The notes under the pieces are model-generated. The model worked only from the letters and a program-made list of their open reading frames with translations, made no database searches and was not told the DNA's origin. From assembly GCA_964570585.1 (NCBI GenBank), contig CAZMYR010000001.1:17441-81440 (forward strand): a stretch of 64,000 nucleotides of DNA, given 5' to 3'. A program made the position numbers and the translations under genes. The DNA is from an uncultured Planctomycetia bacterium. GTDB lineage: Bacteria > Omnitrophota > Gorgyraeia > JABMRG01 > JAFGKX01. This document shows positions 1 through 60,315 of this stretch, piece by piece (within the stretch, counting starts at the first letter, position 1; each line of letters starts with the position of its first letter).

Positions 1-3000
1 TAGTTTGTGGCTATGTTGAATTTAATCACTCCTGCTTTGGCTAATACAGCAAGTTCTTCCATATCGCCTTCGATGGTTTCCGGCTGGACAATAGCTACAT
101 TAAATCTCTCGGCTTCTTTTTGCAACTCTTCTGTAAGCCAGGGACTTATCTTGTCCACCTGTGGTATAGGAGCCAATGTCTTCATATCATAATCTATGCC
201 ATGGCCTGAGCCATTATTTGTGGCAATAAGGTCAAAAGATAGGTTCTTTAATTTAAGATACTCTCCCATTACCCTTATAACAGCAGGATGGGTCATCTTG
301 GGCTCAAGCTTACCGTCACGTCTTGGGTTTGGCACTTTCTTATCAACCTGGCCCACCTCTATCACTTTTCCAAAATGGCCAGTTAATTCAGGAGTATGTT
401 TATCCACTATCCTATCTATATATTCAAGCTGATGCGCTGTCTCTTCTGCGTTGCTGGTAGGAAGAAGTAGTAGCTTTTGTTTCTCGCTTATACTCTTTGA
501 GACTTCTGGGCTTAGGTCACCTGCTATAGTAGCCCTGGCAACTTCTCTCATTATTTTGTCATAAGCAGCAATAACTTCATCTTCCGAAATACTTTCCACA
601 GGGCTCTTTTCGGAGACACCTGGCCCACGAACATCTTTATACATACGAGCTTTCTTGCGTAAAACGCCAAAGGCTGCATTCATATTTCTAACAACGCTGT
701 CAATCTTCCCAGGCGCTCTATTACGTTTTTTCATATTCGAGATAACTGTTCCTCTTATATGGTCAAGTCTTGCCATATTGTCTTTATCATATGGATTTGC
801 CTTAAGAAAATCAGCGCCCCATTCAAGCGGCAGCATAGAGTTCCTCTCCAGGCTAACAACTAAATCCTCAGCAGGCGTGCCATTTTTCTCATAATAGTCT
901 AAGACGGCCTCACCAGCTACTCCATCATAAATAGTTGAAGCATCTATGCCTATTGAGGTAAACCCTGCTTCAATTAAGGATTCAATATCACTCTTTATTA
1001 TCGCGCGCTCTGCGCTGAGATTATCATTTAACCTCCTCTGGACGGCTTCCAAGATTTTCACATCAATAGTATCAATTCTTATCTTATCATTATATGTACC
1101 CTCACCATTTTCCTTCTCATATTCCTCTTTCAATATCGCCTTTGCGTCAAATAAATAATCTTCATACTGAAGACGGCCACCATGTAAAACCAACGGGTTT
1201 TTAAATCCAATTCGCTCTGCTACTTCTCTTACATAGGCAACCACTCTTTTTTCATGTAAAGCATAACTAAGCTGGGAACGACCTACTGCAAAAATAACAG
1301 CAGCATTTTGGGCCATCGCAGCCTTGAGATGACCCTCAATCTGATTATAGCTGACGATATCGGCTGCTATTAATGCCTTCCTTGCCTTTTTTACAGCCTC
1401 GAATGCATCATGCCCGGGGGTAAATAAGCCCTCTGAGGGCCCAATTATAGTAGCTGTGCCGGTTGAGCCGACAGTTTCTATATACTGGTCATCACGGTGC
1501 TGGATAAGTTCGGTGATGGCCTGCTGGACCTTCCCTCCAGCTTCTTGGATAAGCATCTGGCGTGCTTTATTAGCAGCCGCTTCATCCCCGCTAATTGTCT
1601 TACGATCCCACTTTCTTATCTCAGCAATCCTTTCTTCAGGTAGTTTGCCTGCCGAGGAGGATTTTGCTTCAGCTATTGGGAGACCAGTAAGCTCCAGTGG
1701 CAGTGGCTGTATGCCACTTGCATCCTTAGTAATCAAAAATCCGCTATGTCGGTCATTGAGGATGGCGTTGGGGTCAAAGGTTATGAATATCTCATTGGTA
1801 AGGAAAGGGACTTCGTCCCCTGCCACCAGGTGCGAAGCTTTTTCTACAGGAAGGCGATGGATAATCACAGAATCGCCATCTTCAATAAAGTCAGGTTTTG
1901 CTTGACCGGTCTGAATAAATTTGGCTTGAATGCCTGCTCCGTTAACATCAGTAACTTCAAATAGATAACGAGCCTTAAGCAGAAGCTTCTGTCCTATCTC
2001 TATATAAGGAAAGTCTTCTTCTTTGCGCAGGCGGGCTACATCCATAACCGCTAATTTGTCTTTTACTCGACGGGTTACATAACGAGCAGCGAGTAACTCA
2101 AGGCCTAACCTTCCCTTATCATCATAATCATAATTCAGGGCAGTATTATACTTTGCTGTCTTGGCCTTTAGGCTTCTTCCGTATATTTCGCGAATAGCCC
2201 TGGCAAGCTCGTCAGGAAGCCTATATCCAAGGAAGGTATCCACCATTTCTCCCAAGTCCTGCTCTTCAGGAATTAGCAAAGGATTATCAGAGCCAAGCAT
2301 CTTTTCAGTCCAGTGGACAATCCTGTCAAACCCCTCTTTTCTTTCGCCTTTAAAGCTGTAGAAGTAGCCAAGATTATCTCTATTTTTCACCCTTAAACCT
2401 TTTATTATTTTACCCTCAGCCAGGGCCTGTAAGGTCTCTTCAATTAATTGCTCGGCTAATCTATCCAGTTGTTTCTGAATTCTTTTAGGCAGTAACTGAT
2501 ATGCTAAACGAGGCAAGACTTCATAGACTATCCATAGGTCACGACTCAAGATTATAGCTGCTTCGCCTTTCTCCTTAGCTTCCTCGGTTAAAAGGTCGGT
2601 TGCATCAACCTGCTCAAAGAAGCCATACATCCAGGTTGCGATTGCATTACGAACCTCTATGCTATCTCCATCAACCCTGGTAATAATCTCATTCTGGGTA
2701 TTCGATTTTCTGCTTAAGAAAGAAACAAAATATTGTCCTTCATCGCATTTTACATAATATTTTGCACCATCTATCAAATCTAATGCGATTTCGCTTACAT
2801 TATGTAAGGTCATGCCGGTCAGCTTAATATCTACAGGCTGAGCAGGTTTATAGATGTAATAAAGCGAACCATATTTTCTTTTCCCTTCTTGATATTGGCG
2901 CCTGGTGCCGGCTTCTTCAAACCCTAATTTTCCAATATACTTCTTAAATCTCTCTAAGACCCTATTGACTACCTTTTGCTTTTCATAACGGCCAAAGTTA

Positions 3001-3344
3001 GCATGCGTTCCTATCCTAACCTCAGGGCTGGCAAAAGACTTGGGTAACTCATTGTATGCATCAAGGAATGCCCCGAATGTCCTATCTCCCATAACCATGG
3101 GGACCAGCATCTTATTGGTTATCTCCACTGCGCTCATTTCTGCTCCGCTTAAAGGTTCCATTCCGTGACCGCTAACCTCTGCCCCTCCACCAATGCGGGC
3201 ATTGTTACGGAGGTTTACCAGAAGATTGGACTTGCGGCCTCCAAAAATCAGAGTCTCCTCATTCTCTGCCATTATACTGCCTTCTGTCTGTTTCATTTCA
3301 TCCTTCACATAACCAAAACCTACCGGGCCCTCTAAAACATCCAT
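1..3344 (-). CDS. Partial large multidomain protein, >=1114 aa; the C-terminal part continues past the window start. Ends in a class-II (Zn) aldolase-like module.
   Basis: Hand translation of the minus strand, codons topping at positions congruent to 2 mod 3. Verified codon by codon for 3-1673 and 3120-3360, with spot checks at 2400-2460 and 2880-2940; no stop from the ATG at 3342-3344 to position 3. Starts MDVLEGPVGFGYVKDEMKQTEGS. A possible SD (AGGGGAA) lies 13 nt upstream. Class-II fructose/tagatose-bisphosphate aldolase family signatures: SLIEAGFTSIGIDAS (941-985), IATNNGSGHGIDY (~200-240), GVIKFNIATN (12-41). Linker motif AEAKSSSAGKLP at 1638-1673. Absent from the supplied ORF track because it runs off the edge. 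Confidence 0.55.
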   Translation of the reverse strand, partial: MDVLEGPVGFGYVKDEMKQTEGSIMAENEETLIFGGRKSNLLVNLRNNARIGGGAEVSGHGMEPLSGAEMSAVEITNKMLVPMVMGDRTFGAFLDAYNELPKSFASPEVRIGTHANFGRYEKQKVVNRVLERFKKYIGKLGFEEAGTRRQYQEGKRKYGSLYYIYKPAQPVDIKLTGMTLHNVSEIALDLIDGAKYYVKCDEGQYFVSFLSRKSNTQNEIITRVDGDSIEVRNAIATWMYGFFEQVDATDLLTEEAKEKGEAAIILSRDLWIVYEVLPRLAYQLLPKRIQKQLDRLAEQLIEETLQALAEGKIIKGLRVKNRDNLGYFYSFKGERKEGFDRIVHWTEKMLGSDNPLLIPEEQDLGEMVDTFLGYRLPDELARAIREIYGRSLKAKTAKYNTALNYDYDDKGRLGLELLAARYVTRRVKDKLAVMDVARLRKEEDFPYIEIGQKLLLKARYLFEVTDVNGAGIQAKFIQTGQAKPDFIEDGDSVIIHRLPVEKASHLVAGDEVPFLTNEIFITFDPNAILNDRHSGFLITKDASGIQPLPLELTGLPIAEAKSSSAGKLPEERIAEIRKWDRKTISGDEAAANKARQMLIQEAGGKVQQAITELIQHRDDQYIETVGSTGTATIIGPSEGLFTPGHDAFEAVKKARKALIAADIVSYNQIEGHLKAAMAQNAAVIFAVGRSQLSYALHEKRVVAYVREVAERIGFKNPLVLHGGRLQYEDYLFDAKAILKEEYEKENGEGTYNDKIRIDTIDVKILEAVQRRLNDNLSAERAIIKSDIESLIEAGFTSIGIDASTIYDGVAGEAVLDYYEKNGTPAEDLVVSLERNSMLPLEWGADFLKANPYDKDNMARLDHIRGTVISNMKKRNRAPGKIDSVVRNMNAAFGVLRKKARMYKDVRGPGVSEKSPVESISEDEVIAAYDKIMREVARATIAGDLSPEVSKSISEKQKLLLLPTSNAEETAHQLEYIDRIVDKHTPELTGHFGKVIEVGQVDKKVPNPRRDGKLEPKMTHPAVIRVMGEYLKLKNLSFDLIATNNGSGHGIDYDMKTLAPIPQVDKISPWLTEELQKEAERFNVAIVQPETIEGDMEELAVLAKAGVIKFNIATN

Positions 3345-3392
3345 ATGCAGACGGATTCCCTGCTTTAAATATTCTTGCTTCATCTTCTCCAC

Positions 3393-6300
3393 TAACAGCT
3401 TAAACCCAGCGTAGAATTTCACTTCAACATAAAATATTGTCCTCTGAGTATCTTTTTCGCCTAAACGCCTGGCTTTCTCTACATCCTGCCTGGCTATAGT
3501 CCTGGCGTACAAGGCCATCAGTTCATCGCCTTGAACCATCTTGGCTAATTGGGGCAGCCAGGTAATTAACCTGTCCTTGTCTTCATCGCCGATTATGGCT
3601 ATTTCTACATCTTTCTCTTCAAAGGTGGCCATCGCCTGTCGGACAAACCACGGTATATTAGGATAAGGTTCGCCATCCGGGAACATATAGTCAGGGTCAT
3701 CGTGGACTACCAAAACCTTTTGCCCTAAAGCTCTAAAGATAATCTGATCCATTCCCCCTGAACCATGCTGATAACCTAATCCAAGGGTGGGTAAGCTATA
3801 TTTCTCAAACGGTCGCTGCCAGCAGAGTAAAGGCCGTTCTGAAAACTTCTCATCAAACTCTTTCTGTTCAGCTCTAGAAAAGCCTAAACTCTTTCCTAAA
3901 TCTTTACGGATTGCCTCCCATTTATCATCCCAATCTAATTCCCGGGTAGCCATTATAAGCTCGCGTATTCCACCCTTCTGGTGGATAGCCCTTTTCCATA
4001 ACCATCCCCATATATCTCTTCCTAAACGAATATAGGCTATTGAATATAAATAGTGGGTATAGGCAACCTCTACTGCAGAGAGCACTTTTATTTCTCTCTC
4101 TTTCAGCTGTTCTTCTGGACAGGGCCTGGTTCTGCCAGCAATAATACCTTCTTTTAAACCCTGCATCTCCTCATCATTAATACTCAATACCTGGGCTAAG
4201 GTATGTTCCCTACCTTTTTTATCCAGTTTAATATCGAACCAGCTGAGCATCTGTTTCCAGCCGCTAAACTCCCAGGGGTTATGGCTGGCTGTGCCGTGGC
4301 CACCACCAAATAAAAGATGCTCTGCCTCTTTATAGGCTTCGAGTAAATCTCCTCTTCCTTCTCCTACACATATCCCATCATTCCAGAGCAGGTTGACAAT
4401 AAGATAATACATTGGGGTTGAGATAATACCTTTCTTTTCAAAATCTTCCGCCAATACATTAAATCTTTCCACATCTTCAGGGCGCAGACGTCCGGCATCA
4501 AGGTCTTCCTTTATCCATTTCATAGCACGGTCAAGGCCTTTCTTATTAGATTTTACTAAAAATACGTTTACTCCTGAATAAAGCAGGCCTAAGGCATAGA
4601 CATCTCTATGTTCCTGTATAGGTAGGCGGCATCCACCACTGACTAAACCCCAAACCTTTTCTCGAAGCTGCTGATGCAGTTTGGGATTTTTTTCTATTTG
4701 GCGTTTTAATTCTTCGTCTTTTAAACCCATGCCTTCTAACATAGTGGTACCTAATTCTATGGCTGAGGAGAAGATAAGCTTCTTAGACATCAAGGCCGGA
4801 TATCGCTCTGTAATCCCAGGAAGTTTTAAGTCTGTGGTTCTAAAAGCGGAGCGTAAATCATAGGTTCTATAGGAGAACCACTGGCCATGTTCCATAATAT
4901 CGAATCTTCTAATAATATCGCCCTCGCGAACCTCTATATGTTCCTGGATAGTAACTCCTTTTGCCTTAATCTCTCGGGTATCATCAAAAAGAATATTATC
5001 TACACATTGGAGTTTTCCCTCAGTCCTTTTTTCCTTATAGGTTATCTCATGGGGGTTATCAATGATTTCTACTCCTGCAAATGGCCTCATATGACCATTT
5101 TTCTCAGGAACTTCATTTAGGATATCACTTATCTCATTAAGGAGTTTAGCTGAATCTTTAACCGTTAAACCAAAGACTTGAGAAAAGCTTTCTACTCCTT
5201 CTTTCCTGCTTTTAGAAGACACTCTGTTAGCTGCTGTATATTGAGCATCTCTGGTCATTATCTGGTGATAGGCAACTATCTTGGTAAGCGTCTTGTATTG
5301 TTCTAAGTCAAACTCAGATTTATGTCTGCGGAGGGTTTCAGGATTATGAAGGGCTTGGGTAAGTATCGATAATTGATCGGTCTTCAAGTTTAATCCAGGG
5401 TGAAGCATAGCATAAAGCGAGGTCAACATCGTAAGTAATTCTTCTGGAGCTGCTTCTCCTTTTTCGAGTTCTGCTCTTCCTATCTCATAGCCGCCATTCT
5501 TCAGAACAGCATTATATGCAAAAATTGTCCGCCAGATATCGCCGGCTTCTAAATAAGCCTTAGCCACCGCCCGGTATAGATGGCGCCATTCCTCTGCCTC
5601 TACTTTTTGGGGTAGTTTACGTAATTCAGCGGCGTCGGCCTCTATATCTCCCCCGGTAACCTCTGCTAAAATCCCAAGTATCCGGCTATCATCCTTTGTC
5701 TCTTTGAATATATCCACTGCTAATGGTAGAAGCCGCAATATAAAGTGCAATCTTTCCAAGCGCTTAATCCTTCTGGATAAATCTTTTTCAGTCTCGGCAA
5801 CATCTACTCCGTGAGTTACATAACTGCCTGCTGAAGCAGATTTGGTGGCAATAGCACCAATAAGGCTTTTAACTTCTTCAACGGGCTTGAAGAACTTAAG
5901 AACCTCTGCTTCGCCTTTAGCGCTAAGTACATATCTGCCAACAGTTGATGGAACATAAAGCGATTGGCCCCTCTTAAGAGGGATATCTTTCCCGCCTGAG
6001 CTAATTACAACCTCGCCTTTTATAACAAGAATATCGTGAGAAGTACCTTCTACTGGCGCTACACTTAATTCAGCCTCAGCGCCTTTTCCTTTTCCATTAA
6101 GCGTAAATCTGTGCACATTAAAATATTCCTGGGGCCAGACATTGGGGTATGTGCCTTGGATAAGGACTTCTTCTTTTGCTATCAAATCCTTGCCATACCT
6201 ATCTCGCCATTTTCCACGCTCAATTTGAGGCTCTAAAACAAAATTCTTCTCCTCTGTTGTTGTATCCTTTAAACCTTTCCTGACGAACATCTCTATTGTC

Positions 6301-8702
6301 TCAAACTCTGCCTGTAAGAAATCCTCTTCTGATGTAGTCGGACGTCTGGCTAAATTCTTGCGCATTATTAAACCTTTATCTTTTTTGAAAACAATAGGGG
6401 TAAAAAAGTCTGCAAAACTGAAGGTAATATTAGAGGTTTGCTGGGGTTCAACAAGTATAAGATGTTCATTGCCGCCTGTATCGTTTACAGGTATTACTAT
6501 CCAGGCCTCATTTTTGGCCTGCGGTCCTTTCAGGGGATGGGTCTGGTGGGAAAGGCCAAATATACTATGGGGATAACCGACGGGTGAGAGGATAACCTTC
6601 CCGGGCTCAAGTTCAATCTCATTAAATAATTCTACAATCCTGGCTCTGACACCTTGGATTTTGCTCATAAGCTGGCTGATTCTACGCCGATTTTCACTCT
6701 TTACAAATTCTTTTATATCCGGGATAAAATCGCCCCACCATCTACTCCCTGCTTGATAGTCGCACCAGTTTGTATAAACTTCTTTAAATCTTCTAAAAGT
6801 CTCTTCGTCAGTTATATCCAGGAGGTTCTTTAGCTCATGCTCCAGCTCTCTCTCTTCCTTCAGCCACTCAATAAAAACTTCTATTCCGACCTCATTGAGC
6901 TTTTCGTTGAACCCCATATGTACTCTATCTACAAAGTTTGTGCATTCAAACTTCTCAAAATAACCCTTATCTAAAGACTCACCAAGCATTTCGGGATTAT
7001 ATCCGAGAAGTTCTTTTAATGTTATAGGAGCCACATCTCCTAACGCTGTATCAGGAATAGTTGATAAGCCATCGTTATGAGTTGAATTAAACCAGAGCTC
7101 TGCTATGGGGTTATTTTTATCTATCGGCCTGCCTAAAACTATCTGGTTGGCTATTCCGCCCCAGGCATAATTTTTTTCCGCAGGAGTAGTTATTAGGGGA
7201 CTGTATTTTGCCTGTTCTATCAAATCCTTAATCTGTTTTATTCTGGTTTTTGCCTGGTTATTAGTTATAAGTTCGGGTAGCGAATCATCTGAAACATGAA
7301 AGTGAATCTCCCCGATGTTTTCTACTACTGTTCTGATAAGGTCAGCTATCTTCTTCTCATTTAACTCTTGATAAAATGTAAGCAGGTCTTTCTTGCCTGT
7401 AAACTGCTCCAGCATCTCTGTAGGGTTACTAATCCAGATAGGTTTAGGTGCGTCTTCTATGGTCCTGAGCATATAGTGTTTACCACCGGTGGATATAGTA
7501 GTATACGGTGGAAATTCTGCGTTCTTAACAATAGTTGCAACTGCCCCTGCCAACATCGGATCATAAGCAGGGTTAATCTTTTTCATATCTTTTGGGTCAA
7601 GCTTAATCGATATATCATTAAATCTCAATCCCCCTAAATTTACCATAAAGTCGGCATATCCCGGAAGGGCAAATGTCCAGGAACCTGCACTGACCCTCTG
7701 GGCCAAGACCTCTATTATGTTACCCGCTTCATCATATAAGATATTAAACTGGATACCTTCCCCTTCTGTTACATATTTTATGTCCAGAGAAATACCTTGG
7801 TAGTGTCCTACTCCGGTGCTGGTTGCCTGGATTGAGCCTGGCATCATATCGTGCAGAAAGGAGGTTTCATGAATGGTGGATAATTTCTTTTCCCTGGTAA
7901 GTTTCTTAAGGACATCGGGCACCCCTATAAGGCAATGGGCCATAAGATAGATAAGCTGCTTATTTCTCGCTGTTTGGAATTTCTTTGAATCATAGCGGGT
8001 AAGGGTAGCAAAGGCTGGGTTTGAAACGCTGCCTACGCCAAGCTTATCAATGCCTTCTGTGCCTCTATGATAAAATCCGAGTCCGCCTTCTTCATCCACT
8101 ACCAAAAACGGCAAGGCACTGACATCCAGATAGCTTAATCCTTTAGGGCTGGTAGCCATTCTGTCCATATCTGCAGTAACTCCAAAGGCTTCTCCTTCTG
8201 GCACATCTCGCTTAATCCATGATATTATATTCAGGGCCTGTCCGGCCATAAGCTGGAGAGCCTTTGATATCTTTGAATTCTGCAAGGAAAGACTCAGCTT
8301 TATTACTGTTGTATAAAATTCTTTTACATAGGGCTCGATGGTTCTATTATCAATAAACTTTTCTTTTAACTCATTGCTTATGGCTTCAAGGGCCGAAGGC
8401 AACTGGACAGATTTATATGCATTAAATAAAACCTTCGCTGCCTCTTTTGCTTTATACCCACCAATAACCAGCTCTACCATGCTTTCTACTTCAAGCTTAC
8501 CTGCGGTGGAAAGATAAGACTTGCCTGTTGGTACCTCTGATAAACTACTTCTAATTTTTGCACCCACGGAAGAGGGTGTATTTCGTAGAGAAGTTGCTCT
8601 TAGGGCATCAGTATCAGCAAATGCAGTTGGCTGAATTGTGCTTACAGCGAATATTATCGCTACGATTAAACTTACCGCCTTCTTTAACACCCCTTTACCC
8701 AT
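3393..8702 (-). CDS. Secreted large multidomain protein (1769 aa) with an N-terminal signal peptide and two mannose-6-phosphate-isomerase-like cupin segments.
   Basis: Start ATG at 8700-8702, preceded by GAGGAG with a 7-nt spacer. An alternative in-frame ATG lies at 8727-8729. The frame was verified open codon by codon from 8702 down to the TAG at 3393-3395. N-terminus MGKGVLKKAVSLIVAIIFAVSTIQPTAFA-DTD has positive n-region, hydrophobic core and AXA cleavage site, typical of a signal peptide. A PMI class-I-like motif GLSHQTHPLKGPQAKNEAWIVIP lies near 6480-6560. A cupin barrel ending GQSLYVPST lies at 5941-6122. This ORF is NOT in the supplied ORF track. Confidence 0.6.
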
Positions 8703-8893
8703 TTTCAAATCTCCTCTTTTTTTTGTCATAGTCTTTCATAAATCTTTGCTTTGTTATGCTTAAGTTATAAAAGTCTTTAATTACCCGAATACAGCGCAAC
8801 CCTTTTGCCTCGGTTTGTCCCCCTCGAAAATTTTTTATGGAGACAGTAAAATCGAGGCCAAAGGGTTGTTTAAACGCTATAACTCTATAACCC

Positions 8894-11800
8894 TTATGCT
8901 GCTATCAGGGCAGCCCAGGCCTGGCGCTGGAGTCTCTCTATCTCTTCCTGGCTTAGTTTCTCAACACCTGGTAGAGTGGTTATTATAAGCTCAAAGACAC
9001 TCCAGGTACCTTCTCTTAGGGCTTGCTCAACTATAGCTTCTATAGTATTCTGGGTGTATTGCTGATACATCTTCTTTATAGCAGGGAACAGCTGGTTGAA
9101 GTTATCTTCATTGAGAGACAAAAGACCCCTGGCTACGGCAATAAGCTCTGCCATTGGAAGAAGTATATCATCTTTCTTAACCCCTATCTTAAAGAGTTTG
9201 ACATCAGCAAGCTGTTGTTTGTCTGAGATAAGGATGGTTTTCTTTCTGTTTAGGGTCTGTCTGTTTACATCAGCTAATAATACTATCTGGGTCTTTTTAG
9301 TTACTTGGCCTTTATCCTTAAAGGATAGGGCATATTCTAAGGCGTCACGGAGTCGGTGGTCTTTAAGCATAGAGATAACCGCCATCCTCTGTTTTATATC
9401 AGGAATGGCGTTGGCATCTACGATGATGGTGCCTTCTGATTCTATCCTGGCAATAGGGGCACAAACTCTGGCAAATTCTATTACACTGCGCTGGGTTGCT
9501 ATCTTAAGCTGGATAAGCTCTTCTTCAGCTGAGGTAAGAGTAGTTTCTACTTTTAACCTTGTTGCCTTTGCACTTAATTGAGTCAATTTCTGTAAAGACT
9601 CTGTAAGCAAGCTATCATTGAGTAGTTCTACCTCTCCAGGAACCTGGGTGGTCTCTTTAACCAGGGCGTCAAGAAGTATATTCTCGGCATTAAGTAATCC
9701 TCTATTAAGCTCTGCCAGAGCCCGGTTGCCGGCTGAGGAGGATTTATTAGGCTTGTCTGATGATTTCTCTCTGCCAACCATCATATCGTCCATAGCAAAG
9801 GCTTGCACTTTTTTAGCATAAGCCTTCTCTGCTTTTGTGTATTTGGCACCTGCTCTTCTAACTAAGATTTTCTCTGCATCAGGGAGTCGCTTCAATAATT
9901 CTTTTCTGGGCGCAGGACCGGCTACGAGATTCTGTTTCTGTAATTCAACTATCTGTTTTCCGGTAAGAATAGCTATGCCAGCCTCTGCAGATTTATCTCC
10001 GATTTTTTGCACCAGTGCAGCTACCGGCATAAACCCCTCTAACATATTTTGAAGATCCCTTACCTGATATAAAAGAATATAGGCACCCTCAGTTTCTTTT
10101 AGCGAAAGAAGGGTTATATTAAAATCGTCGCATTGTAAAAGTAGCAGCCCTTTCTGTCCAAGTTTAGCATCTTTTATAAACTGCTGGTCATATCCAAGTT
10201 TTGAAACCTGTTTTTTAAATCCAATTAACACATTGTATAAAAGCAGCAGCCGGGATGCCCTTACATCGTTCATAGGAATATCTAGAGCCAGCCTTACAAG
10301 AATCTCTGGTTCAATAACCTTAACTTCCTCACCGGCCAGTATTACACCCGATGAGGAGGATTTGGATGTGGAAATAGGTTTTGGCAGCAGTTTTGAAATA
10401 GCTGCTGTGTCAAGCTCAGAAACCAGCGTAAGGGGAAGGTCCTCGCTGGGTGGCAGGTATTTGGCGGCATAATCGCTCTTCCAATCCTCTGTGAGCTGAG
10501 CTATCACCTCTTGCTTAACTATAGCATAGATACTGCCTTTTTTATCAATGCGTACATCAACAAGAGGGTTATCGCCTTTATATTCCCACCATTTGTGTCC
10601 TATCTTGAATCCTGGCTTGTCAGTCTCCATATAGAGAGAACCCGGCCCAAAGATAACCGCACTTGTGTCTATGCCGGACTTTAAGAATATGAGTTTGCCT
10701 TGCTTAATTTTGACAGATGACCAGCGAGTATTGGCTCCCATATTTCTGAAGGTATAATCACCGGCGGAAGGTATCTCTGGTATATAGTTGATTGCATGCA
10801 ATGTCTTAAGAAGACTTGAGAAAATTTCTGTAACCGACTTCTGTTCCTTAGCTCCGGCTGAGGAGGACTTGGTAGATTCCTGTATCTGTGCCATTAGTCT
10901 AATATTGCGCTCTAATACATTTTGAGCAGCAATATTATGAGCTAAAGCCGGTTTATCCTTAATTCTTTCCATCTGTTCTTTTGTAAGATGTGCTATATAA
11001 GCCTCAAGGCTACGCCTGCCCTTTATTCTCATCAATATTTGTATATCTGCAAAACCAGACAGTTCTGCCTTCAAAAAGCTAATGTATGCGTTATCAATTC
11101 CGGGCATACGAAAACATCCAGTAATCTCAAAAGGTGTGTGTTCAAACATACTTTGAATCATTCGCTCATTCAAAGATATGTCTCCTACGCTTCTGGCTTC
11201 ACGGCTTAATTTTTCAAAATTGTCAAATGGGAAATTTTCTTTTATATGAGCAAAAACAAGTCCATTATTCGCCAGATTCTCGCGTGTAATATCTTCGACT
11301 TTAATACCAACATCACCTATCCGGACTATCTTGCCGGCTGACGAGGATTTGCCTGCAACAGGTATTATTGCTACCTCAGGAACTAACTCAAAGACAGCCC
11401 AGAGGTCATATCTGTTGGGTTTTCCTAATTCAATAAAGCTGCCACCACCTTCCCAGCGATGTTGACCATATGCTACTACACCACCTGCCGTGGTAACAGG
11501 TTTACCTGTTTCAGGGTCAAATCCCCAGAATGGACCATGGGCATGGCCTCTTGGCAGGGGAAGATATGCTGGCTTTCCACTCTCATTATAATAGACCATA
11601 CCGCCCTTACCGGTTCCATTGCGCATACAGAAGTGAATCTCACCAAATGTGGTGTCTTTGGTTAGTTCGCTATGGTCGTGGTCTGCACAGTTTACACCCT
11701 GGCCTGCGGTCCAGAACTGGATATAACAGACCTTTTTCTCTTCACCGTTTATTATCTCTATACCCTTGAGGTTATAGAAAGCTAAATTATCAAAATGCTC

Positions 11801-14800
11801 GCCCCAACCATAGGTATTACAGTTTACCCAATTAAGCAGGTCTGCTCTTGAGCCGGTGGTGATATCAGTCTGAGACATTTCAGTAACAACAGCGTCAGGA
11901 GTTGTGTCAACCATGATAGCTACTATGGCACCTTTTTCTCCTGCCTCGATATACTCTTCTGTAACCCGGGTGTTCCTGAGCTGCTTGGCAGGAGCAAAGG
12001 CATCACGGTTGATATTGCTTAATTTACCGGTTATAACATTAACATAGTTTTCACCGCGTGTATGATCCAAGGCTAATTTTGCACCTGGAGCTAATTGGAC
12101 ATACTGCATACTCCAGCCTGCCATCTCCCATTTTTCGGTGGCGTTTATCAGGCTTTCAGCCATAGTCTTGAATCTTATTGCTATTTTGCGCTCATCCTCC
12201 TCGGTTATCTTTGCATCAGGTGTTATTTTAGCCAAAACTACTGCTGGCATCTGTGAATTTCTCTCAAACATCATCTGTTTTCTATAGGTCTCGGCCATGC
12301 TTAGCTCATTATCGTCATTTACCCCTTGGAATTCCCTGATATCCGCCAAGGCAGGAGCGATAACACTTAATGTACCATTTTGGGCAAGAATAGCAGAAAT
12401 CTGAACAAAATTTATCTCTCCTTTCTTGTTGGCAGAACTATCATAAGGATTTAGAAAATCACCCGCACTATCTTTAGGGAATTTCTCCAAAGTACTGAAT
12501 ATATCTTTTGCTTTTCCCATAAAGAGTCCTACATCGTCGCAGCCAAAATCTAATTTTGCACCTTTTTTGCTGCCTATTACCCTTCCATTTTTATCTACCA
12601 TGATAGGAGCGTAGGGGTCCTTTTTATATGTAGTAGCTATGCTAAAGGAGACATCGCCTAAGGCTTGATGTATCATAGTAAGCCAAAGAACAGTCTCCGG
12701 ATTCAATACTGCCATATCTCCCCATACAACAAGTAGATCTCCATCAAATTGCGCTAAATTCTCCTTTGCAGAAAGTACTGCGTGGCCGTCACCTTTTATA
12801 TAGTCCTCAAAGACATATTCTGCATCAAACCCGCCTTTATCTAAAGCCTCTTTTATCTCTGCAAAATTTCCGCCTTTACCTTCTTTTCCTAATGCATCCC
12901 TCCATTGTTCGGAACGGACTACAACAACGGGTTTTTTATCTAAAAACGCTGTCTGTCTTAATACGTGATAGATTATAGGTTCGCCGCATACCTTCTGGAG
13001 AACCTTTGACTTCTTGTCTGTCATCCTGGTACCCAGGCCTGCAGCAGCAACAATAACCCGTACCGGCCTTTGAAGCTTAAATTCTGCTGAATCTTTTATA
13101 CCCAGGATATCAAGAGTTAACCTTCTAATAGTATCTTTATTCTTTTCATAATTAGCCCCATCCCTTATAAGGTCTCTTAAGACGCTCTTGGCTAAAAAGT
13201 TCCTTAATTCTGTTAGCTCTTTTTTAAATTCAGCTATAGAAGAAAAACCGCCTTTCGTGTCCTTGACTTTGTAGTGTAGCGCCAAGAACCTACTCTGTAT
13301 AAGCTTGTTTAAATCTGTGGCATTAACAAATTTCATCTTTTGTATAATATTTTCAATCTCGCCATAACCTGGCCGGGTGAAGAGGCCATAAATTAAGTAT
13401 TCCAGCTCACCGATGGGGTCAACTCGCATAACAGAATAATCTATTAAAAAAGGTGAACCATCGGGTTTTATTAAGATGTTTCTGGTGTTTATATTCCAAG
13501 TCCCGGGAACATCTTTGCCCTGCAGGTATGAAGCTACATCGGTTATATTTATAACTGTATCTATGAGCTCGATACCGCGATAACCCATAGCCCCTTCATT
13601 AATGCCCTCAAATTTCTCGCCAAAAGGTACACCTTCGGCATAAGGATAGACTATCGCCTTTGCATCTTCTAAGCCGGCCCATTTATCTTTACCGGCGCTC
13701 ATAACCACTGGCCTATATATATGGGGATAATCCTCCGGGACTCTTCGTAAAAATTCATATATCTCATCTGCTTGCCTTTCCATACCCTCTGTTTCTAACT
13801 TCTTAATAACAAAAAGCTGCCCACTTTGTTCATCTTCTGCTAACAAGAGTTTCTCGCTTCCGTGTATCGGCCCGATGATAATAAATGTTTTTTCACCCAT
13901 CTTGTTACACAGGGTCAGTTTTTCAACAACTCCCTCTTCTCCAGCCGAGCTGGCTTTGACCATAGTATCGGCGGCTGAAGCTACCTCGGATCTTTCAATT
14001 CTCTGTCTAACGCCCTTAAACTCATCCGTAGTCCTGGCAACATCCATAACATCTGGCCAGAAAAGAAGCGTTTCCCCGTCGCTTTGCATCTGTTTTCTTA
14101 CATCTTTTTCGACCTTTTCAATAAAGGCATCTTTCGTGCTATCATTTATTCCGCTCATATACCTTCTTTCATTTGGTTCTGGCATCTCATCAAATACAAT
14201 CTCTGTACCGTCTGCTAAGGTTATAGAATAACGCGTTTCCTGTTTCACCGCATCCCCATGCTTCGCTGGCATTTTGGTGGTTTTGATATCACTTCGTTTT
14301 ACGGTATGGGGAGGTCTGCTATCGTCTATTTCAAAGTAAACCACTCTGTCTTCTTTCTGCTTCACATCACCAACTAAATCCTCTATTATTATTACCGGCT
14401 TTAGCCTGATAATAGCTCCTGTTTGGTCTACTTCCATACGATATGTTGTCTCTACCGGATGTTTGGTGATTTTAGTGCCTTCTACTTTTTCCACCCCTGT
14501 TCTTGGTGGTAAAAATTCTACAACGAATTCGCCCGCAAGTATATTAAGGCTATCATGCAATTCTTTATTGCCATGTTTTAATGCCGCAGCGGCCTTCTTG
14601 GTAAGGGTGTTTATCCTTTCTATTGTCCTTGCCTGAAGGTTGTGTAGGGCCTCTTTGCGTTTGTCTGGAATCTCATAAATCTTCCCTTCTTCTATCATCT
14701 CTTTTCCAAGATACCTCATACGTTCTTTATAATCTACGCGGTCATCATATTTTTCCATAGCTTCGAATCTGTCCAGGGTTCTTCTTACCACCCTGTTTAA

Positions 14801-25174: not shown

Positions 25175-28100
25175 TTAAGCCTGCGAAAGAACCTGTTCAT
25201 GCTCCCTGATATAATCTTCATGCAGATCGCTCAGATCAGAGATAATCTCAAACCTCTTATCCTTAAGCAGCATAATGAGCGCCTCTACTACTTTCTGTCT
25301 GGTCCAGACATCAAGGTCTTCTTTCGCTGATGCGAATACGCGTACCTGTGTTATGCCGTCTTTACTCTGTAACTTGTATGCTATATTCTCTACATTCATT
25401 TGTGCAGTAAATACATAATCGAAATGGTCCCTGGTTATACCTTTTACTTCCAGACTTGCAAGTAAAGTATGCATATTTCTTTCTTTATTCACAAGGCAGA
25501 ATTTCCTGCCGTCTCTTCCGGCAGAAAGCACAAGCTGCTGCAATGCCCTGCTTTCTTTAAGGGCATCGGAATAAATAACTATTGCCTGATTATTCAGCTT
25601 AACTGCTATTTCGCCTTCAGGTGCATAATCGAGTAGAGCCTTTGCAATCTGATATTCAAGCGAATAATCTGCTATCTGTGTTAGGTTAAGACCGCGGATT
25701 TGCTCAGGCATAGGCTCTTTTGCTGGAGGAGCCTTGGCTACCTCTTTGGAGGCGGCAACCTCCATTAACGATTTTATAACATACCTATCAGCAAATAATC
25801 TGAGCGCATAGGTTGCCATCTCCCGAACAAATATATCTGCTTTCTCATCCTGCAAAACAGCTAAAAGCGCCTGCTTCGCTGCTTCAATATCTTCCTGCGG
25901 AATATCTTGGTTTGAATATATTATATTCTCTATGGCAGCGATATTTTCGACACCTGCAAATGATGCGGTTTTGTTTTTATTTAATTCTTCTACCTGAACT
26001 TTTATTTCGCCGGCAGAGGAGGCCTTTGGAGCCTCTGTTTTTGTAACTGAGGGTTTCCCTGCAGCGCCGATAGTAGATGTTGACTCAGGCGGTGGTGTAG
26101 TCTTACCTATAAACCTTGCCAATTCTTCCTTTGCCTTTTGTATATCAGCAGGTATCTCAACCGCAACCATAAAACCTTTGCCAGCAGGCCCATACTCTGT
26201 TAGTTTAGGAACCTCTTCCACCGCAAGCTCAGCAAAATATGGAAACTCATCTATTAGTGTCGAGGTGTCTATAGGCGGTGCATAGCCTATGCGTCTAATC
26301 CTTAAATAAGAGCTGTTTTCGGGTCCATTAACAATCTTATCATATGTAGCTACTGTCCTTCTTTGAAGCATCGGGTGCTGCATTAATATCACCGTGTCCA
26401 GCTCATTGAGGCTGCAATGATTATCCCTGACCTTTTGCTTTTCGGCGCGCCTATCCTCTGAATCAGAGCTATTCACTTCTGCGCTTAATACATCCAAACC
26501 ATTTCTTACGTTTTCTTCTGTCTGCGTAGAAGCTGTTTCTATGATTATATGCGATTCATCAACACCTTTCATTATAAGGGTTTCTTTTATAAGCCTTGCT
26601 TCTGAGACACCGGCCGTTTTCAGTTCCTGGTTTGACTTTTTCTCTATATCCGGAATTTCATCAAAAATAGGCAATTTATACCCGGCCTTTTTAAGATTAG
26701 TTATCAGGAATTTTGTCTCGTGCCCAACCCCGCCGCTTATAAATATGTTTTTGACATTTCCTGCGCGATATAATTCCTCCGCTCTCATTATGTATTCGAG
26801 TCTGCTATTACCGAATAGCCATAGCAGGTCTGCAGAAGGCTGTTCGGTATCTCTCTGCGCGAGGTAATCGAATATCTTCACCAATGCATCTATAATCTCC
26901 TTCTTCAGGACGGTGCCTGCAGAAGAAGCTTTTGTCTTTCCCTCTGTCTGAGTAAGGCTCACGTTGGCAAGTTCCCTGCTGCAGTAGGTTTGAGTAATCG
27001 GGCCTTCCCAGACAGCATATAATATGTTGTTAGCCGTAGCTTTTCCTATATATTTATTTCTATTTTTATTTACCGCATCAAATAACTGCTTTAATTCATC
27101 AGCAGAAACTGGCCTATTTACCCTGCCTAAAACTACATGAACAGCATCCTGTCTAAAGCTGCCGGGGAAAATCTTCTTGGGGAAAATTCCAGACATATTA
27201 TCTCTTATCTGAGTCAGCTGCGGATTGTCAACATATCCTATTGCCATCACAATGCCAACCGAACTTAAAATGGCGCCTTCAAATGTTACATCAAAAGGTT
27301 CTGCCTTTTCTAATATCCTCTTTACACTATCTGTCTTTAACAATATATCTTCAGGCGCATCGCCTTTGTAATCTTTTTTGGAAGAGAAAACGCTGGTATG
27401 GAATCCCACCGCACCATTTTCTGCCGGGGTAGTCCTTTGCGGCTTGCTCCATAAGACTATATCGCCTGGTATATCCCTGGCAATCTGTTCCTGCAGAGAA
27501 ACCAGATTGGCAATCAACTCCTGAGACTGCGGCTGTTTCGGCCATTCTATTACCGCCCCTACTGCCTGGCCTGTTAATGGCTGGCCTGTTTCTGTATAAT
27601 AATCTCTGTTTCTGGTTAAATCATCCCTTGTTATACCCCGGTCCTGTTCTATTTTTTTTCTTGTTTCGTTGTGCAAAGTGTCATATTTCTTATCGAGCGC
27701 GGAACGTGATTCGGGATATATCTTTTTTTCTCCAGAAGGTGAACTCTTTGAAGTTTTTACTGGATAATATAATTTTAGTGAGCTTGATGCTAACTCCTGT
27801 AGCTGTGCATCAACATCTGTATCTGGCTCTCTCCTTGCCTGTCTTAATATTGCTCTCCATTCATCACCAAATAAGGCATTTTTGACTTGTGGATAAAGGA
27901 CTACCTCGGCAGCTTTTAAGAGCTCTGGATTGGCTTTAAAATATTCAACTGTAGCTTCAAGGGCCTCGTATTCTAAGGCATCTGGATGGTTAAGGTGCCA
28001 TACCTCATGCCATACAACGCCGTGTAAAAATGCGTCGTAGGTTTTGGTGTGTCTGGCTTGCCTTTTCGCAAATTCCTCTTTGGTTTCCTCTTTGGTTCCG

Positions 28101-52100: not shown

Positions 52101-55100
52101 TAATTGCCAGATGTAAATTCCACAATTACCGTATTTATAGAACCATCCCGTGCCATTTCCTCTAAAATGGCTTTTATCTCCTCCGGGTTCTTATCCATTA
52201 AATCTTTTATGGAATCGCTTTTTACTATATTATCTAATACTTTCCTAATTATATCCTCAATTATAGTCTGCCTATTTGCGCTCTTATCTTCTAACCTTGC
52301 TAATATGTCACTTAACTCCGATGTCATGCTATCTACATCGGCTACCTCTATATGCCCTTGATTTGATAATTCACCTAAAATTTCACTCACTTTTTTTACT
52401 GCCTCTTCTACTGTCTGTGACCTTTCAACCTCTTCTGCTAAACGCCTCAAATATCCCTCCATATACTGATCTGTAACTTTACCATTTTGCCTTACGCGCC
52501 TGTAATTCCCCTGGCCAATTCGTGAGCGATGAAGAAGAGAATCCACATGATTACTTACGGTCCTGTCTGATTCGCAATTTAGCAGTATGGAACCTACTTC
52601 TTCAGGAACACCTTCAGTAATCATCTCAGCAGGCAACTTGTGGTTTATATGTAACCGCTCCACTAAACCAGTGGTCTTCTGTCCGGAAGTGCCTTTATCA
52701 GGACACATAAAACCATAATCTGTACGTTGAGGTTTTGGCTCTTCGCCCTTTCCTGCTTCTGCTTCGCCTTTTTCTACTCTTGCCATTCGAATAAGCTCCT
52801 TGGAAGATACAAAAGGCAACTTATAATCATCTGCTGTATCTTTCCCAACAGTAGCTGAAGCTAAAGATATTCCTGAAACAAGTCCCATTTCAGGGTTGAG
52901 AACCTCCGGCGTTGTCATCGAGGCAGAAGACATCCTTTCTTTTTCAATCTTTAAGTTAGCATTATTTAACCTGTTTTCCTTTATTCTTACAGCCGTATCA
53001 AGCCCAAAGCTCCATTGTCTTCCTTCCAGCTTTCGGCCGCTTGCGTCCTTATCAATAATATTCAGCTTCCCTCCGGATACATCATATTGCTCTTTCCTGT
53101 TTTGATAAAGATATGCACCGAGCGCCAATTCCATATATTCCTGCCACAAATGGGTATCGCCTATGCCAAAAAGTTTTCCCTTATTTGCTTTATATTCATC
53201 TATTGTATCCAGTATTTGTCCAAGCCACACCTCTCCTGTTCTTTTAAAGGTTACTAAGGAATCGCCTCTTTTACAAAGTTCTCTATTAACATAAAATTTT
53301 CCGTTTCTTTCGAATATGAGCCTGTGTTTCCAGATAAGTTCATCGGCAATTTGTTGCATCCTGAGCCTTTGTTCAGCAAGGTCTGCCAACCCCTGTAGTA
53401 TGCCTGTCCCTGATATAACGCAAGGGGTAAACACATGTTTCTTTAAGGGGTTATCACCTTCATCAAAATAGATAAAGTATGTCTGCCCTTCCCGCACCAA
53501 TGCCAGGTCTTCTTCCTTTCTGGACATAAAGACATCATCCTCGTACCTATGGATGAAGTTATATATATTAATATAAATTACATCAGCTTCTTCAAAAAGC
53601 TTTCTTTCCGTGGTATCCTGCCTGTTGCCTTGCGCATCCACAAAATAGGCCTTTCTGTCTCCTGTTCCTGCCTCTGAAATAACATATCCTGTCTTAGCGC
53701 CAAAATATGCATTAACCCTGCCCGCCTTTCTTCCGTCTCTTTCTATCAGGTTTTCTTCGGTATGAATAATAGCCACATCTCTCTTGCCAGGCCTTTTGCC
53801 TGTTTTCTCACGTTCCCATACATAAGGAAGGCTCTTTAGGAGTGATGTGCCATTAAACACGAATGTCTTTCCGGCGGATGTGGGCATCTCTACTGCGGCG
53901 CCGTTTCTCATAACTTTAGCAACCGCTGCCTGAATCTTCCATTTTTCACGATCCCATTCAATCTCGTGGGTTACCGCATCCTCAGTAAGGCCGCTGGCCA
54001 CTATTGCCTGCTCTATCAATTCTAACAACAGGTCTTTATCAAAATCTACACCTTGTGATTTTAATGACTTTAAAATAACACTAAACCTATCCTGAAATTC
54101 TTCTATCGTCATCCGCTCAAGTACAGGCCCCACTTTTGCAACCTTTTCGCCTTCTGGCACCGCTGGTTTCCTGTCGCTTTCTACCCTTGCTTTTTGCGAG
54201 GTCTCCTGCAGCTGTGCGCGCAGCTTCTTTATAGTATCTTGGGCTCTGGCAAGTTCTTCTTTCTGCCTTGCTTTTTCCCTTCGGGTTTTTTCTAATTCTT
54301 CTTGAACTTCCGCAAGTTTTCTTTCTGCTTCCTCAAGCCTCCCGGTAAGTTCATCAAGTCTCTCGCCGGGAAATAAGGCATCAAAAAGCGGCGTATTTAT
54401 TGATTTGGCAACATCAGGGTCTACTTTAGAAAGGTCTATATTGCTTTCACTGCCATAATATTTTTCTTTGTCGATGCGGTGAAGGCCTCTGAAGTTTCCT
54501 AAAGTAATAGGAACCCGGCCTGCCAGAACCCTGATTCTTCTGCTTAAGGTATCTGCGTTGTGCTTAAACATCCAGGGCCGGATAGGAAATTTTATGCCCT
54601 GTTTTCCGAGTTCTTTATTTAAGGCAACTATATTTTTAAGTTTCTCAATAAATAAAACGCGATTGCTTTTAAGGCTTTTGCGTATTTCCTCAGATTTAAC
54701 AAGCCGCTCTGTATCTTCAGCTGCAAATTCTTTATTTGCCCCGATGTCTTCTAATATTCCTTTCAGAGTCTTTCCGGCAGAGGAGGCTTTGACTTTGGCA
54801 CCAGGAGCCAGGGTCAGTCTCAGTTTCTTATCCTCCTTATCGATTCTGTCAAGCCCGGCCTCATCATTTGCATATAATCTTTTTAGCTTATCTAACTTAA
54901 CTGCATATATATCTTTACCCTCTTCCCATGCAGATGTAAGCTCTTCGAGTCTTCTCTTAAAAAGTTCTTCTTTCGCTTTTTCTATCTTACTTCTTACATC
55001 TTGATAGGCATCCGCCCCTTTAAGGCGTTCAAATTCTTTGGTAAGGTGGGCGGCAACCTGAAATTCAACGCTCGATTTCTCTGTCGGCTTAATCGGTCTC

Positions 55101-58729: not shown

Positions 58730-59100
58730 AACTTCTATTATATCTCAAATGGTCCTGGAGGCCTTGACAGTCAACTACCCCACGCCTAAAGGTGGAGGGC
58801 TTGTGAGAATAAGCCTGGTTGACTAGGGGGCATTGAAAGATGCAGAAGTTAAGAGAAAGAAGGATAACCAACACACCTACGGTTATTACGCACGACCGTA
58901 GCAACTGTGGTCTGTCATTAAACAGCCCTGAGGGTAGGGACAGTGTGGCAGGCTTAAAAACCTCTCTTAACAGCCCCGATGCGTCTCTAACTGCGAGTCC
59001 CGCCCTTTTACAAAAGGGCGGGACGAGAGGACACGCAGGACAGAACCCGAGGGTATCTGTCGTTTACCCCCACACCAAAAGTTTTGGTGTGGGGGTTTAT
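58730..59100 (+). ncRNA. Candidate omega-RNA (OMEGA guide/scaffold RNA) upstream of, and overlapping, the iscB start
   Basis: Strongly structured. Perfect 13-bp hairpins GTCCCGCCCTTTT/ACAAAAGGGCGGGAC (58997-59024) and CCCCCACACCAAAAG/TTTTGGTGTGGGGG (59067-59095). The track's 5' extension of the iscB ORF (58840-59088) translates to low-complexity, non-protein-like sequence. The extent is approximate. Confidence 0.4.
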
Positions 59101-60315
59101 GTCCTCAGTAAAAAGGGCAAGCCACTCATGCCCTGTTCGCCAAGAAAGGCAAGAGTGCTTCTCAAAGAGACCAAGGCAAGGGTTGTAAAGAGGGCTCCCT
59201 TCACAATAAAGCTTAATATCGCCACGGGAGAAGCAGAGCAACCGATTACTCTTGGTGTTGACAGCGGATACAACTCATTGGGCTTATCAGCAGTATCAAA
59301 AGATAAAGAGCTTTATAGAGCTCAAGTAAGGCTAAGAGAAGACTTGGTAAAACTTAATTCAGAACGAAGGCAGTATCGCCGGGGGAGGAGATACCGCAAA
59401 ACATGGTACAGAAAGCCCAGATTTCTTAACCGAAAGAAACCCCCAGGATGGTTGGCACCTTCCATCCAGCACAAATTGGACTCACATATCAAATTAATCA
59501 CCAAGGCCAAAGAGATACTGCCCATTTCAAAGATTAGTATTGAAGTGGCAGCATTTGACATCCAAAAGATTAAGAACCCTGACATTGAAGGCGAGGGTTA
59601 TCAAAAAGGCAAACAGGCGGGATTCTGGAATGTAAGGGAGTACGCACTTCACCGGGATAACCACCAGTGTCAGCACTGTAATGGCAAATCCAAATCCTCG
59701 GTATTGGAGCTACACCATATCATATCAAGACAGACAGGAGGAGACAGACCTGAAAATCTGATAACTTTATGTTCTATCTGCCACGATAAGGTATCAAAAG
59801 GCCAATTAGAACTTAAAGCCGAACCATCCAAGGGATTCAAAGCTGAAACCTTTATGTCAACAGTTAGATGGAAGTTGATTAATAAGCTGCGAGACTCTGG
59901 TAATATGGTAACACACACTTATGGTTATGTAACAAAAAGCAAGAGGATAGAGTTGGGGATACCAAAAAATCACACCAACGATGCCTTTGTGATAGCAGGT
60001 GGGACTACTCAGAAAAGGACAACATCGGAAGATTTCATCAAACAGGTCAGAAGGAGTAACCGTAAGTTGTTTAAAGGAGACAGGAGTCAGATAAGGAATA
60101 CGGCCGAGAGGTTTGTCTGTGGATTTCAGAGGTTTGATAAAGTGCTATACAATGGTGTGGAGTGCTTCATTTTTGGCAGAAGAAAAACAGGCTATTTTCA
60201 TCTAAGAAAATTGGATGGAACTAAAATTCATTCTTCAGCAAAACAAACAAAGCTAACTCTGCTTGAGAGCGCAAAAACTTTACTGATAGAAAGAAGGCTG
60301 GCTCTCCTCCCCTGA
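59089..60315 (+). CDS. iscB: IscB RNA-guided nuclease (PLMP domain, split RuvC with inserted HNH)
   Basis: The proposed GTG start at 59089 gives MGVYVLSKKGKPLMPCSPRKARVLL, the PLMP motif. Other motifs: RuvC-I LGVDSGYNSLGLSAV; Arg-rich bridge helix RRQYRRGRRYRKTWYRKPRF; RuvC-II ISIEVAAFD; HNH CQHCNG...LELHHI...NLITLCSICH; RuvC-III NHTNDAFVIAGG. The track ORF is 58840..60315; stop TGA at 60313-60315. Confidence 0.75.
   Translation: MGVYVLSKKGKPLMPCSPRKARVLLKETKARVVKRAPFTIKLNIATGEAEQPITLGVDSGYNSLGLSAVSKDKELYRAQVRLREDLVKLNSERRQYRRGRRYRKTWYRKPRFLNRKKPPGWLAPSIQHKLDSHIKLITKAKEILPISKISIEVAAFDIQKIKNPDIEGEGYQKGKQAGFWNVREYALHRDNHQCQHCNGKSKSSVLELHHIISRQTGGDRPENLITLCSICHDKVSKGQLELKAEPSKGFKAETFMSTVRWKLINKLRDSGNMVTHTYGYVTKSKRIELGIPKNHTNDAFVIAGGTTQKRTTSEDFIKQVRRSNRKLFKGDRSQIRNTAERFVCGFQRFDKVLYNGVECFIFGRRKTGYFHLRKLDGTKIHSSAKQTKLTLLESAKTLLIERRLALLP

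Follow-up and report, generated by a model that had tools for sequence, protein, structure and literature searches.

The class II aldolases form obligate dimers or tetramers. Proteins of the GatZ type have an aldolase fold but act as non-catalytic partners, GatZ itself pairing with GatY. The class II fructose-bisphosphate aldolases (FBAs; Pfam PF01116; PDB 7nc7, 4to8, 3gak, 1rv8 and 1b57) are enzymes of 280-360 amino acids (aa). Fructose-bisphosphate aldolase domains, together with TPI, GPI, FBPase and PGM/PMM domains, have been described in the giant proteins of Omnitrophota, which also have numerous transmembrane helices and SecA_DEAD domains of divergent sequence (West-Roberts et al., 2023, bioRxiv 10.1101/2023.11.21.568195). 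Possible extracellular sugar pre-processing is discussed for these proteins and their cleavage into several products has been proposed, while the terms "catalytic residues" and "active site" do not occur in the text (West-Roberts et al., 2023). Here, we describe a 64,000-nucleotide stretch of contig CAZMYR010000001.1 (assembly GCA_964570585.1), called the window throughout and always at its full length. It carries four consecutive giant open reading frames (ORFs) on the minus strand, the last of which, ORF1, encodes a 3,924-aa protein with an internal class II aldolase module whose fold is retained and whose active site is largely replaced.

The minus strand from 8735 to 3 is one stop-free frame of 2,911 codons that covers the left window edge. 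The visible ORF1 product of 2,900 aa is identical to aa 1-2900 of P0014, a 3,924-aa protein retrieved by a family-profile search of 1.84 billion representative proteins; residue numbers given below are those of ORF1/P0014. A sequence-only reading of the window had placed a class II aldolase-like module at window 1-1000, at the C-terminus of the partial left-edge protein and fused to ~1000 aa of upstream sequence. The three motifs on which it relied (GFTSIGIDAS, 936-965; GSGHG, 198-212; GVIKFNIATN, 3-32) do lie in the minus-strand ORF1 frame and the homology is real, but the details of location were wrong. The module occupies approximately aa 2390-3021 of P0014 and is internal, with 2,389 aa on its N-terminal and ~900 aa on its C-terminal side. 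It begins at window 1535, just past a junction motif (Table 1); window 1-1000 encodes only β4-β8 of the barrel, and the sole Pfam-significant stretch (window 1182-1409) falls outside it. About 120 further residues of the C-terminal helices of the module fall past the window edge. The in-frame fusion to upstream sequence is borne out, as no stop intervenes. An independent gene read from an internal start was ruled out: near the module border the frame has a single ATG (aa 2383, window 1556), and nothing resembling a Shine-Dalgarno sequence precedes it, whereas the starts of ORF1 and ORF2 are both preceded by GAGGAG. Plus-strand ORFs overlapping the left end of ORF1 reach only 61-79 aa and are by-products of the long minus-strand frame. 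Base composition is even throughout the window, and an Rfam scan found no RNA family match in this left-edge region.

Pfam, profile-profile comparison, an AlphaFold model and Foldseek agree in identifying the module as a TIM barrel of the class II (metal-dependent) aldolases, in line with the homology proposed by the sequence-only reading, and it belongs to a rare "long" subfamily with two helical insertions. The Pfam match to PF01116 (F_bP_aldolase), at 27.4 bits, exceeds the gathering score of 25.5 and covers aa 2443-2518 of the open frame. A phmmer search of the PDB with the module sequence alone gave no match and the family profile was needed: a profile of the module and nine homologues matches class II fructose-bisphosphate aldolases alone in the PDB. 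In these alignments the family HGDH corresponds to HLDH (D83/H84, residues 83-84 of Giardia 3gak), GFTSiaiDAS to GFTSVMIDAS, and QHGtSGSD...GViKFNiAT to FHGGSGSE...GVIKMNIDT. Comparison by hhalign with a class II aldolase set, which includes the canonical member P0115 (HLDHG, GTVHG, HGGSG, KVNIGT), gave a probability of 99.94% and an E-value of 1.6e-36 over 273 columns. The AlphaFold model of the module (predicted local distance difference test, pLDDT, 87.6; predicted template-modelling score, pTM, 0.88) has eight strands in β-α order, forming a (β/α)8 barrel that is superposable on solved class II aldolases, and each of the 40 PDB structures ranked highest by Foldseek is a class II fructose-, tagatose- or sulfofructose-phosphate aldolase. 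Helical insertions of ~65 residues after β3 and ~180 residues after β4 set the module apart from the FBAs of PF01116, as does its position inside a far longer protein.

Compared with the same FBAs, the module lacks the Asp-His pair, the H-G-G-S-G loop with its His and phosphate-binding residues, and one conserved Glu. The corresponding motifs of the long family are essentially invariant, reading L/I/V-H-G-D-H-I-Q-Y, E-x-E-V-G-H-V-D, N-N-G-S-G-H-G, A-Q-H-G-T-S-G-S-D and K-F-N-I-A-T, whereas the window copy reads LHGGRLQY, VIEVGQVD, NNGSGHG, VQPETIEGD and KFNIATN. The catalytic Asp is replaced by Gly and two of the three Zn-ligand His by Arg and Pro (the third ligand becoming P2874), and a Glu upstream is replaced by Val and a family-invariant His by Gln. 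In the phosphate loop, which now reads P-E-T-I-E, the phosphate-binding G-T-S-G has become E-T-I-E with the gain of two acidic residues. A working sugar-phosphate aldolase, which the sequence-only reading had taken the module to be, is not supported by the residues now at these catalytic and metal-binding positions. Sequencing error was rejected as the source of the substitutions, which are in-frame replacements at more than 10 separate codons of a module that is otherwise well conserved.

These changes are exceptional among the ~65 relatives compared (22 sequences, ~45 representatives from the 1.84 billion proteins and 19 metagenome loci). The motifs DH, GH(V/I)D, GSGHG and QHG(T/S)(S/T)GS are invariant in them, the only exceptions being the window protein and one other, P0039; likewise, all members of the long aldolase family as delimited here (P0001-P0044 and L001-L035) apart from these two have all of the catalytic and metal-binding residues in place. 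When each of 31 full-length modules was compared in turn with the remaining 30 (a leave-one-out count), the window copy kept 47 of the 57 columns on which those 30 agree and altered 10 (NDHAEHHGGS to DGRGVQPEEG). Among the altered columns are an Asp, a Glu, three His and the phosphate-loop Gly/Ser, and at least 7 of the 10 are catalytic, metal-binding or phosphate-binding positions. In the same count, 29 other modules change 0-3 columns each, and most of those changes are conservative. P0040, which diverges most, matches the window copy with 10 changes, but its DH, GSGHG and QHG motifs are untouched. In overall divergence, the module is ordinary for its family, with a mean identity of 48.5% to the others (family range 40-53%); of the columns that at least 80% of members conserve, 84% are kept (family range 78-97%), and no stop interrupts the 2,911 codons.

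The only other degraded site is that of P0039 (2,361 aa), which reads FHGN-LQY, KVGQ-N, NNVPSYG and AQHEIPGAN. Its module is closest to that of P0005 (48%) and only 39% identical to the window module, and therefore the two losses are independent. The P0039 chain also carries class I DeoC/LacD aldolase, PGK and TIM modules, which suggests that the class II module was kept after another aldolase had taken over catalysis.

A fold retained with its active site removed is, as far as residues can tell, the signature of a pseudoenzyme, and we infer that the module neither binds the catalytic metal nor cleaves a ketose bisphosphate. Taken jointly with this inactivity, we give somewhat better than even chances to the reading that the module has been kept as a structural or oligomerising unit, a role that is favoured because class II aldolases work as dimers or tetramers. 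As an internal module (aa 2390 to ~3021) of a protein with a signal-peptide-like N-terminus, probably from Omnitrophota, the catalytically dead barrel would hold the multi-module protein together or link it to an active partner; the other modules in this chain resemble enzymes of mannose-phosphate and nucleotide-sugar metabolism. GatZ/KbaZ/AgaZ-type proteins (PF08013) would be a precedent for such docking, but the module has no Pfam match to PF08013 and belongs by sequence to the long PF01116-type family, and its own partnership with an active aldolase is hypothetical.

Several points weigh against a retained structural unit without catalysis. The structural or docking role is itself reached by inference. 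Scans of genome and metagenome contigs found no close orthologue, the best matches being 56-59% identical, and a search of all six frames of the 64-kb window found no second aldolase-like module. Column retention is the third lowest of 30, and some general relaxation of constraint is possible. Lastly, one Zn-ligand His, the β8 Lys, Asn and Thr, and the second Glu remain, with which some ligand binding is conceivable.

The first alternative is that the module is a decaying remnant, which lost its function after duplication or fusion and is now drifting, its frame open only because it lies inside a long translated gene. The vanished active site, the low retention of conserved columns, the lack of a close orthologue showing the same state conserved and the divergence of the other ORF1 modules, whose Pfam and NCBIfam scores are below cut-off, would all fit decay. 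We nevertheless consider it fairly unlikely, as the overall identity to the family is ordinary and the changes unique to the window copy are concentrated at functional positions instead of being scattered. Furthermore, AlphaFold predicts the fold with confidence, the two helical insertions are intact, as are the C-terminal helices, and the independent lineage of P0039 also kept the fold after losing the site.

A second alternative would have the remodelled pocket bind a sugar or metabolite without turnover, the module serving as a sensor or handing its ligand over to the PGM-like and MPI-like modules of the same chain. The residues that remain leave room for such a ligand-binding or regulatory role, but the acidic P-E-T-I-E in place of the phosphate loop should disfavour phosphorylated sugars, and Pfam gives no match to the GatZ_KbaZ-like (PF08013) or UxaE families. 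To our knowledge, the known non-aldolase members of the class II aldolase superfamily still use a metal site. On balance, this role seems unlikely. Finally, we give almost no credence to the reading of the module as a functioning class II sugar-bisphosphate aldolase, one enzyme within a megaprotein that metabolises sugars, since for all the clear homology and fold, the retention of GFTSIGIDAS, GSGHG and KFNIATN, and the intact relatives that look like real enzymes fused to other glycolytic enzymes, the module has exchanged its catalytic Asp for Gly, Zn-ligand His for Arg and Pro, the conserved Glu for Val, the family His for Gln and the phosphate-binding Gly/Ser for a loop with two Glu, and all the substituted positions are invariant in the ~65 relatives.

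Homologues of the module are rare, with 43 representatives at E<=1e-30 among the 1.84 billion proteins, nearly all from Omnitrophota metagenome-assembled genomes. Eight of ten matches span 99-100% of the query, at 41-59% identity to the window module, and the family hidden Markov model scores 951.8 for P0014 aa 2393-3038. Alignment-based scans recovered 35 loci, none of them more than 56% identical to the window module and every one catalytically intact; scans of genome and metagenome contigs with the single protein found no close relative. Both insertions and the helical C-terminal region of the window module are shared by the members of the long family, some of which are also bordered by K-[AS]-S-S-A-G in the same way. 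Intact modules are found mostly within large proteins that have a hydrophobic N-terminus and strings of glycolytic enzymes, being fused to GPI, PFK, GAPDH, PPDK, PGM, PGI or TIM (examples in Table 1), whereas the window copy is fused to mannose-6-phosphate-isomerase-like (MPI-like) and phosphoglucomutase-like (PGM-like) modules. The presence of ATP- and NAD-dependent glycolytic enzymes behind an export-like signal in these relatives is puzzling.

Some relatives have unusual module arrangements. The closest relative (L001:304-4689, identical to P0017) has a further class II aldolase module at aa 246-640, shorter and canonical in appearance (VHLDHNQ, GFTSVALD, AYHGFSG, KVNINTD), which lies upstream of the long module with KSSSAG between the two. 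In P0007, P0030, P0036, L014:5354-9628 and L015:3-4148, the β5-β8 half comes first, followed by the C-terminal helices and then by the β1-β4 half, which suggests circular permutation or the remnant of a tandem duplication. In addition, a single-cell genome encodes two long aldolase modules that are 99% identical and ~900 aa apart in one ORF (L009:1-18810, or P0011, 7,819 aa), either by recent internal duplication or through an assembly artefact.

The N-terminus of ORF1 is read, by eye and with support from a hydropathy scan, as a putative Sec-type signal peptide. Between it and the aldolase module lie the MPI-like and PGM-like modules, both of them highly divergent, as is every module of ORF1, and these two with matches below the curated cut-offs of Pfam and NCBIfam. 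The phosphoglucomutase/phosphomannomutase-like (PGM/PMM-like) module has a TASHNP phosphoserine loop (4275-4292) and a D-x-D-x-D-R metal loop (3570-3590) that align to solved mutases; a homologue search with this module gave no match, nor did a PDB search with its C-terminal half. GAEVSGH and SRKSNT are candidate sugar and phosphate loops of the same module, read by eye and unconfirmed. The modules upstream of the aldolase module had no BLAST match in the aldolase-containing ORFs of L001-L016.

The module borders in the giant proteins are marked by a short motif, K-[AS]-S-S-A-G. It has 11 strict matches in the four proteins (19,759 aa in total, including the part of P0014 past the window), against 0.0055 expected from shuffles, and is confined to three of the four ORFs, with one further variant copy, KSASAG. 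In P0014 the motif stands at aa 2347 and 3022, where it flanks the aldolase module, and at aa 3372 and 3658. Synonymous codons vary among the copies, and the constraint is therefore on the peptide and not on the DNA. Some relatives (P0005, P0016, P0017/L001, P0027/L004, P0039 and P0137) carry the motif at these same borders as well; a literature search for KSSSAG or KASSAG as a sequence motif returned nothing relevant. It is a candidate processing or modification site, at which modules may be released or modified post-translationally.

KSSSAG also precedes a domain shared by the C-termini of ORF1 and ORF2 (~280 aa; 36% identity over ~330 aa), which ends in ...IERLQRQAWAALIAA. Its one other homologue is the partial Omnitrophota protein P0137; next on that contig come a 960-aa ORF, a PilZ gene and a 2,044-aa ORF. 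The domain has no similarity to the tail of ORF4, and its AlphaFold model (pLDDT 58.7) is too poor to classify.

The motif and the dead module could be brought together in a bolder scheme, which we regard as a long shot. The four giant ORFs would be polyproteins, cut or cross-linked at K-[AS]-S-S-A-G after export, and the dead aldolase module would pair with an active long-aldolase module of another chain, as GatZ does with GatY, to assemble an extracytoplasmic or membrane-attached sugar-phosphate enzyme complex. If this were true, the motif would be the first concrete processing site for Omnitrophota giant proteins.

The neighbourhood of the module is one of sugar metabolism, as the sequence-only reading had recognised, with NTP_transf_3 and AUDH cupin matches in ORF2 and a weak UDPGP match in ORF3 beside the MPI-like and PGM-like modules of ORF1. 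All four giant ORFs have signal-like N-termini. The SecA_DEAD domain and the many hydrophobic helices of the "Archaeovorin" type of Omnitrophota giant protein are matched by the 10,643-aa ORF4. In contrast, the Archaeovorin type is a single ORF of at least 30,000 aa, where the window has four ORFs of 10,643, 1,900, 3,292 and 3,924 aa. PilZ genes downstream and type II/IV secretion genes upstream would further mark an Archaeovorin-type locus; the downstream side of the window's locus lies past its edge, and no secretion genes were found at window 57-64 kb. The related locus L036 carries a PilZ gene.

Further features of the window were noted. The spacer between ORF2 and ORF1 (8703-8896, minus strand) can form a long hairpin with arms at 8853-8867 and 8798-8812 (minimum free energy -50.6 kcal/mol; z -4.6 against shuffles), the arm sequence of which occurs nowhere else in the window. 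On the plus strand, a HEARO RNA (Rfam RF02033, 119.7 bits; 58770-58991) overlaps the beginning of an ORF (58840-60315) whose product has RRXRR and HNH domains, the two making up an IscB/omega-RNA-type element; a DUF4172-Fic ORF follows at 60408-61535. Finally, an ORF at 61622-62806 (minus strand) combines a response-regulator receiver with a phosphopantetheine-binding (carrier protein) domain, an unusual pairing, and adjoins a GAF-histidine kinase ORF at 62826-63992.

Table 1. Features of the giant-protein locus, in window coordinates, and of selected relatives, in coordinates of their own loci (L numbers).
Feature	Position	Strand	Remarks
ORF1, visible part (aa 1-2900 of 3,924)	3..8702	-	ATG at 8702, preceded by AAGAGGAG; identity to P0014
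Signal-peptide-like N-terminal segment MGKGVLKKAVSLIVAIIFAVSTIQPTAFA, then DT	8616..8702	-	Read by eye and hydropathy scan
MPI-like (cupin) module	5910..7175	-	Every match under curated cut-offs
PGM/PMM-like module	2523..4835	-	Loops align with solved PGM/PMM structures
Class II aldolase-fold module, visible part (aa 2390-2900)	3..1535	-	8 barrel strands and 2 helical insertions
D2448	1359..1361	-	Invariant Asn (β1 end) in family and canonical aldolases; alignment
G2509-R2510	1173..1178	-	In place of catalytic Asp and adjacent Zn-ligand His (HGDH in family, HLDH canonical); alignment
GFTSIGIDAS (β4)	936..965	-	Kept; single change Ala to Gly, in a column invariant in the other 30 full-length modules
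V-I-E-V-G-Q (β5)	348..365	-	First Glu of E-x-E-x-G is V2780; family-invariant His is Q2785; second Glu kept
GSGHG	198..212	-	H2834 (codon 201-203), sole retained Zn-ligand His; second ligand, G-x-x-H-G
P-E-T-I-E-G	66..83	-	In place of H-G-T-S-G-S (canonical HGGSG); alignment
GVIKFNIATN (β8)	3..32	-	K-x-N-x-x-T kept as KFNIAT at 6-23; alignment
K-S-S-S-A-G just upstream of aldolase module	1647..1664	-	
KSASAG variant	5826..5843	-	
Further junction-motif copies	9728-9745, 10853-10870, 11333-11350, 13940-13957, 26009-26026, 26915-26932, 54773-54790	-	
Shared C-terminal domain	ORF2: window 8897-9943; ORF1: P0014 aa 3594-3924	-	
ORF4	25175-57106	-	10,643 aa; SecA_DEAD, SecA_PP_bind, Helicase_C, HEAT, DUF218; ~24 hydrophobic helices
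ORF3		-	1,900 aa; weak UDPGP match
ORF2		-	3,292 aa; NTP_transf_3 and strong AUDH cupin match
ORF1		-	3,924 aa; MPI-like cupin, PGM/PMM-like module, putatively dead aldolase module
Relative	L008:9719-19630		3,304 aa; FBA - cupin GPI - PFK - GAPDH - PPDK
Relative	L006:9665-15262		1,866 aa; FBA - PFK - GAPDH
Relative	L005:3-6338		2,112+ aa; PGM - PGI - FBA
Relative	L011:92-7102		2,337 aa; HAD - FBA - TIM

The presence of aldolase domains in Omnitrophota giant proteins is already published (West-Roberts et al., 2023); what this analysis adds is the junction motif and the selective removal of the active site from the window copy, a loss that recurred independently in P0039. K-[AS]-S-S-A-G could make the question of giant-protein processing directly addressable by proteomics, and two independent site losses set against ~65 intact relatives provide a natural experiment on an aldolase fold that would no longer catalyse. 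Domain matches in Omnitrophota giant proteins have been taken as a sign of extracellular or membrane-bound sugar processing. At least some of these "enzyme" domains would be pseudoenzymes, and the name of a domain alone would then overstate the metabolic capacity of the organisms that encode it.

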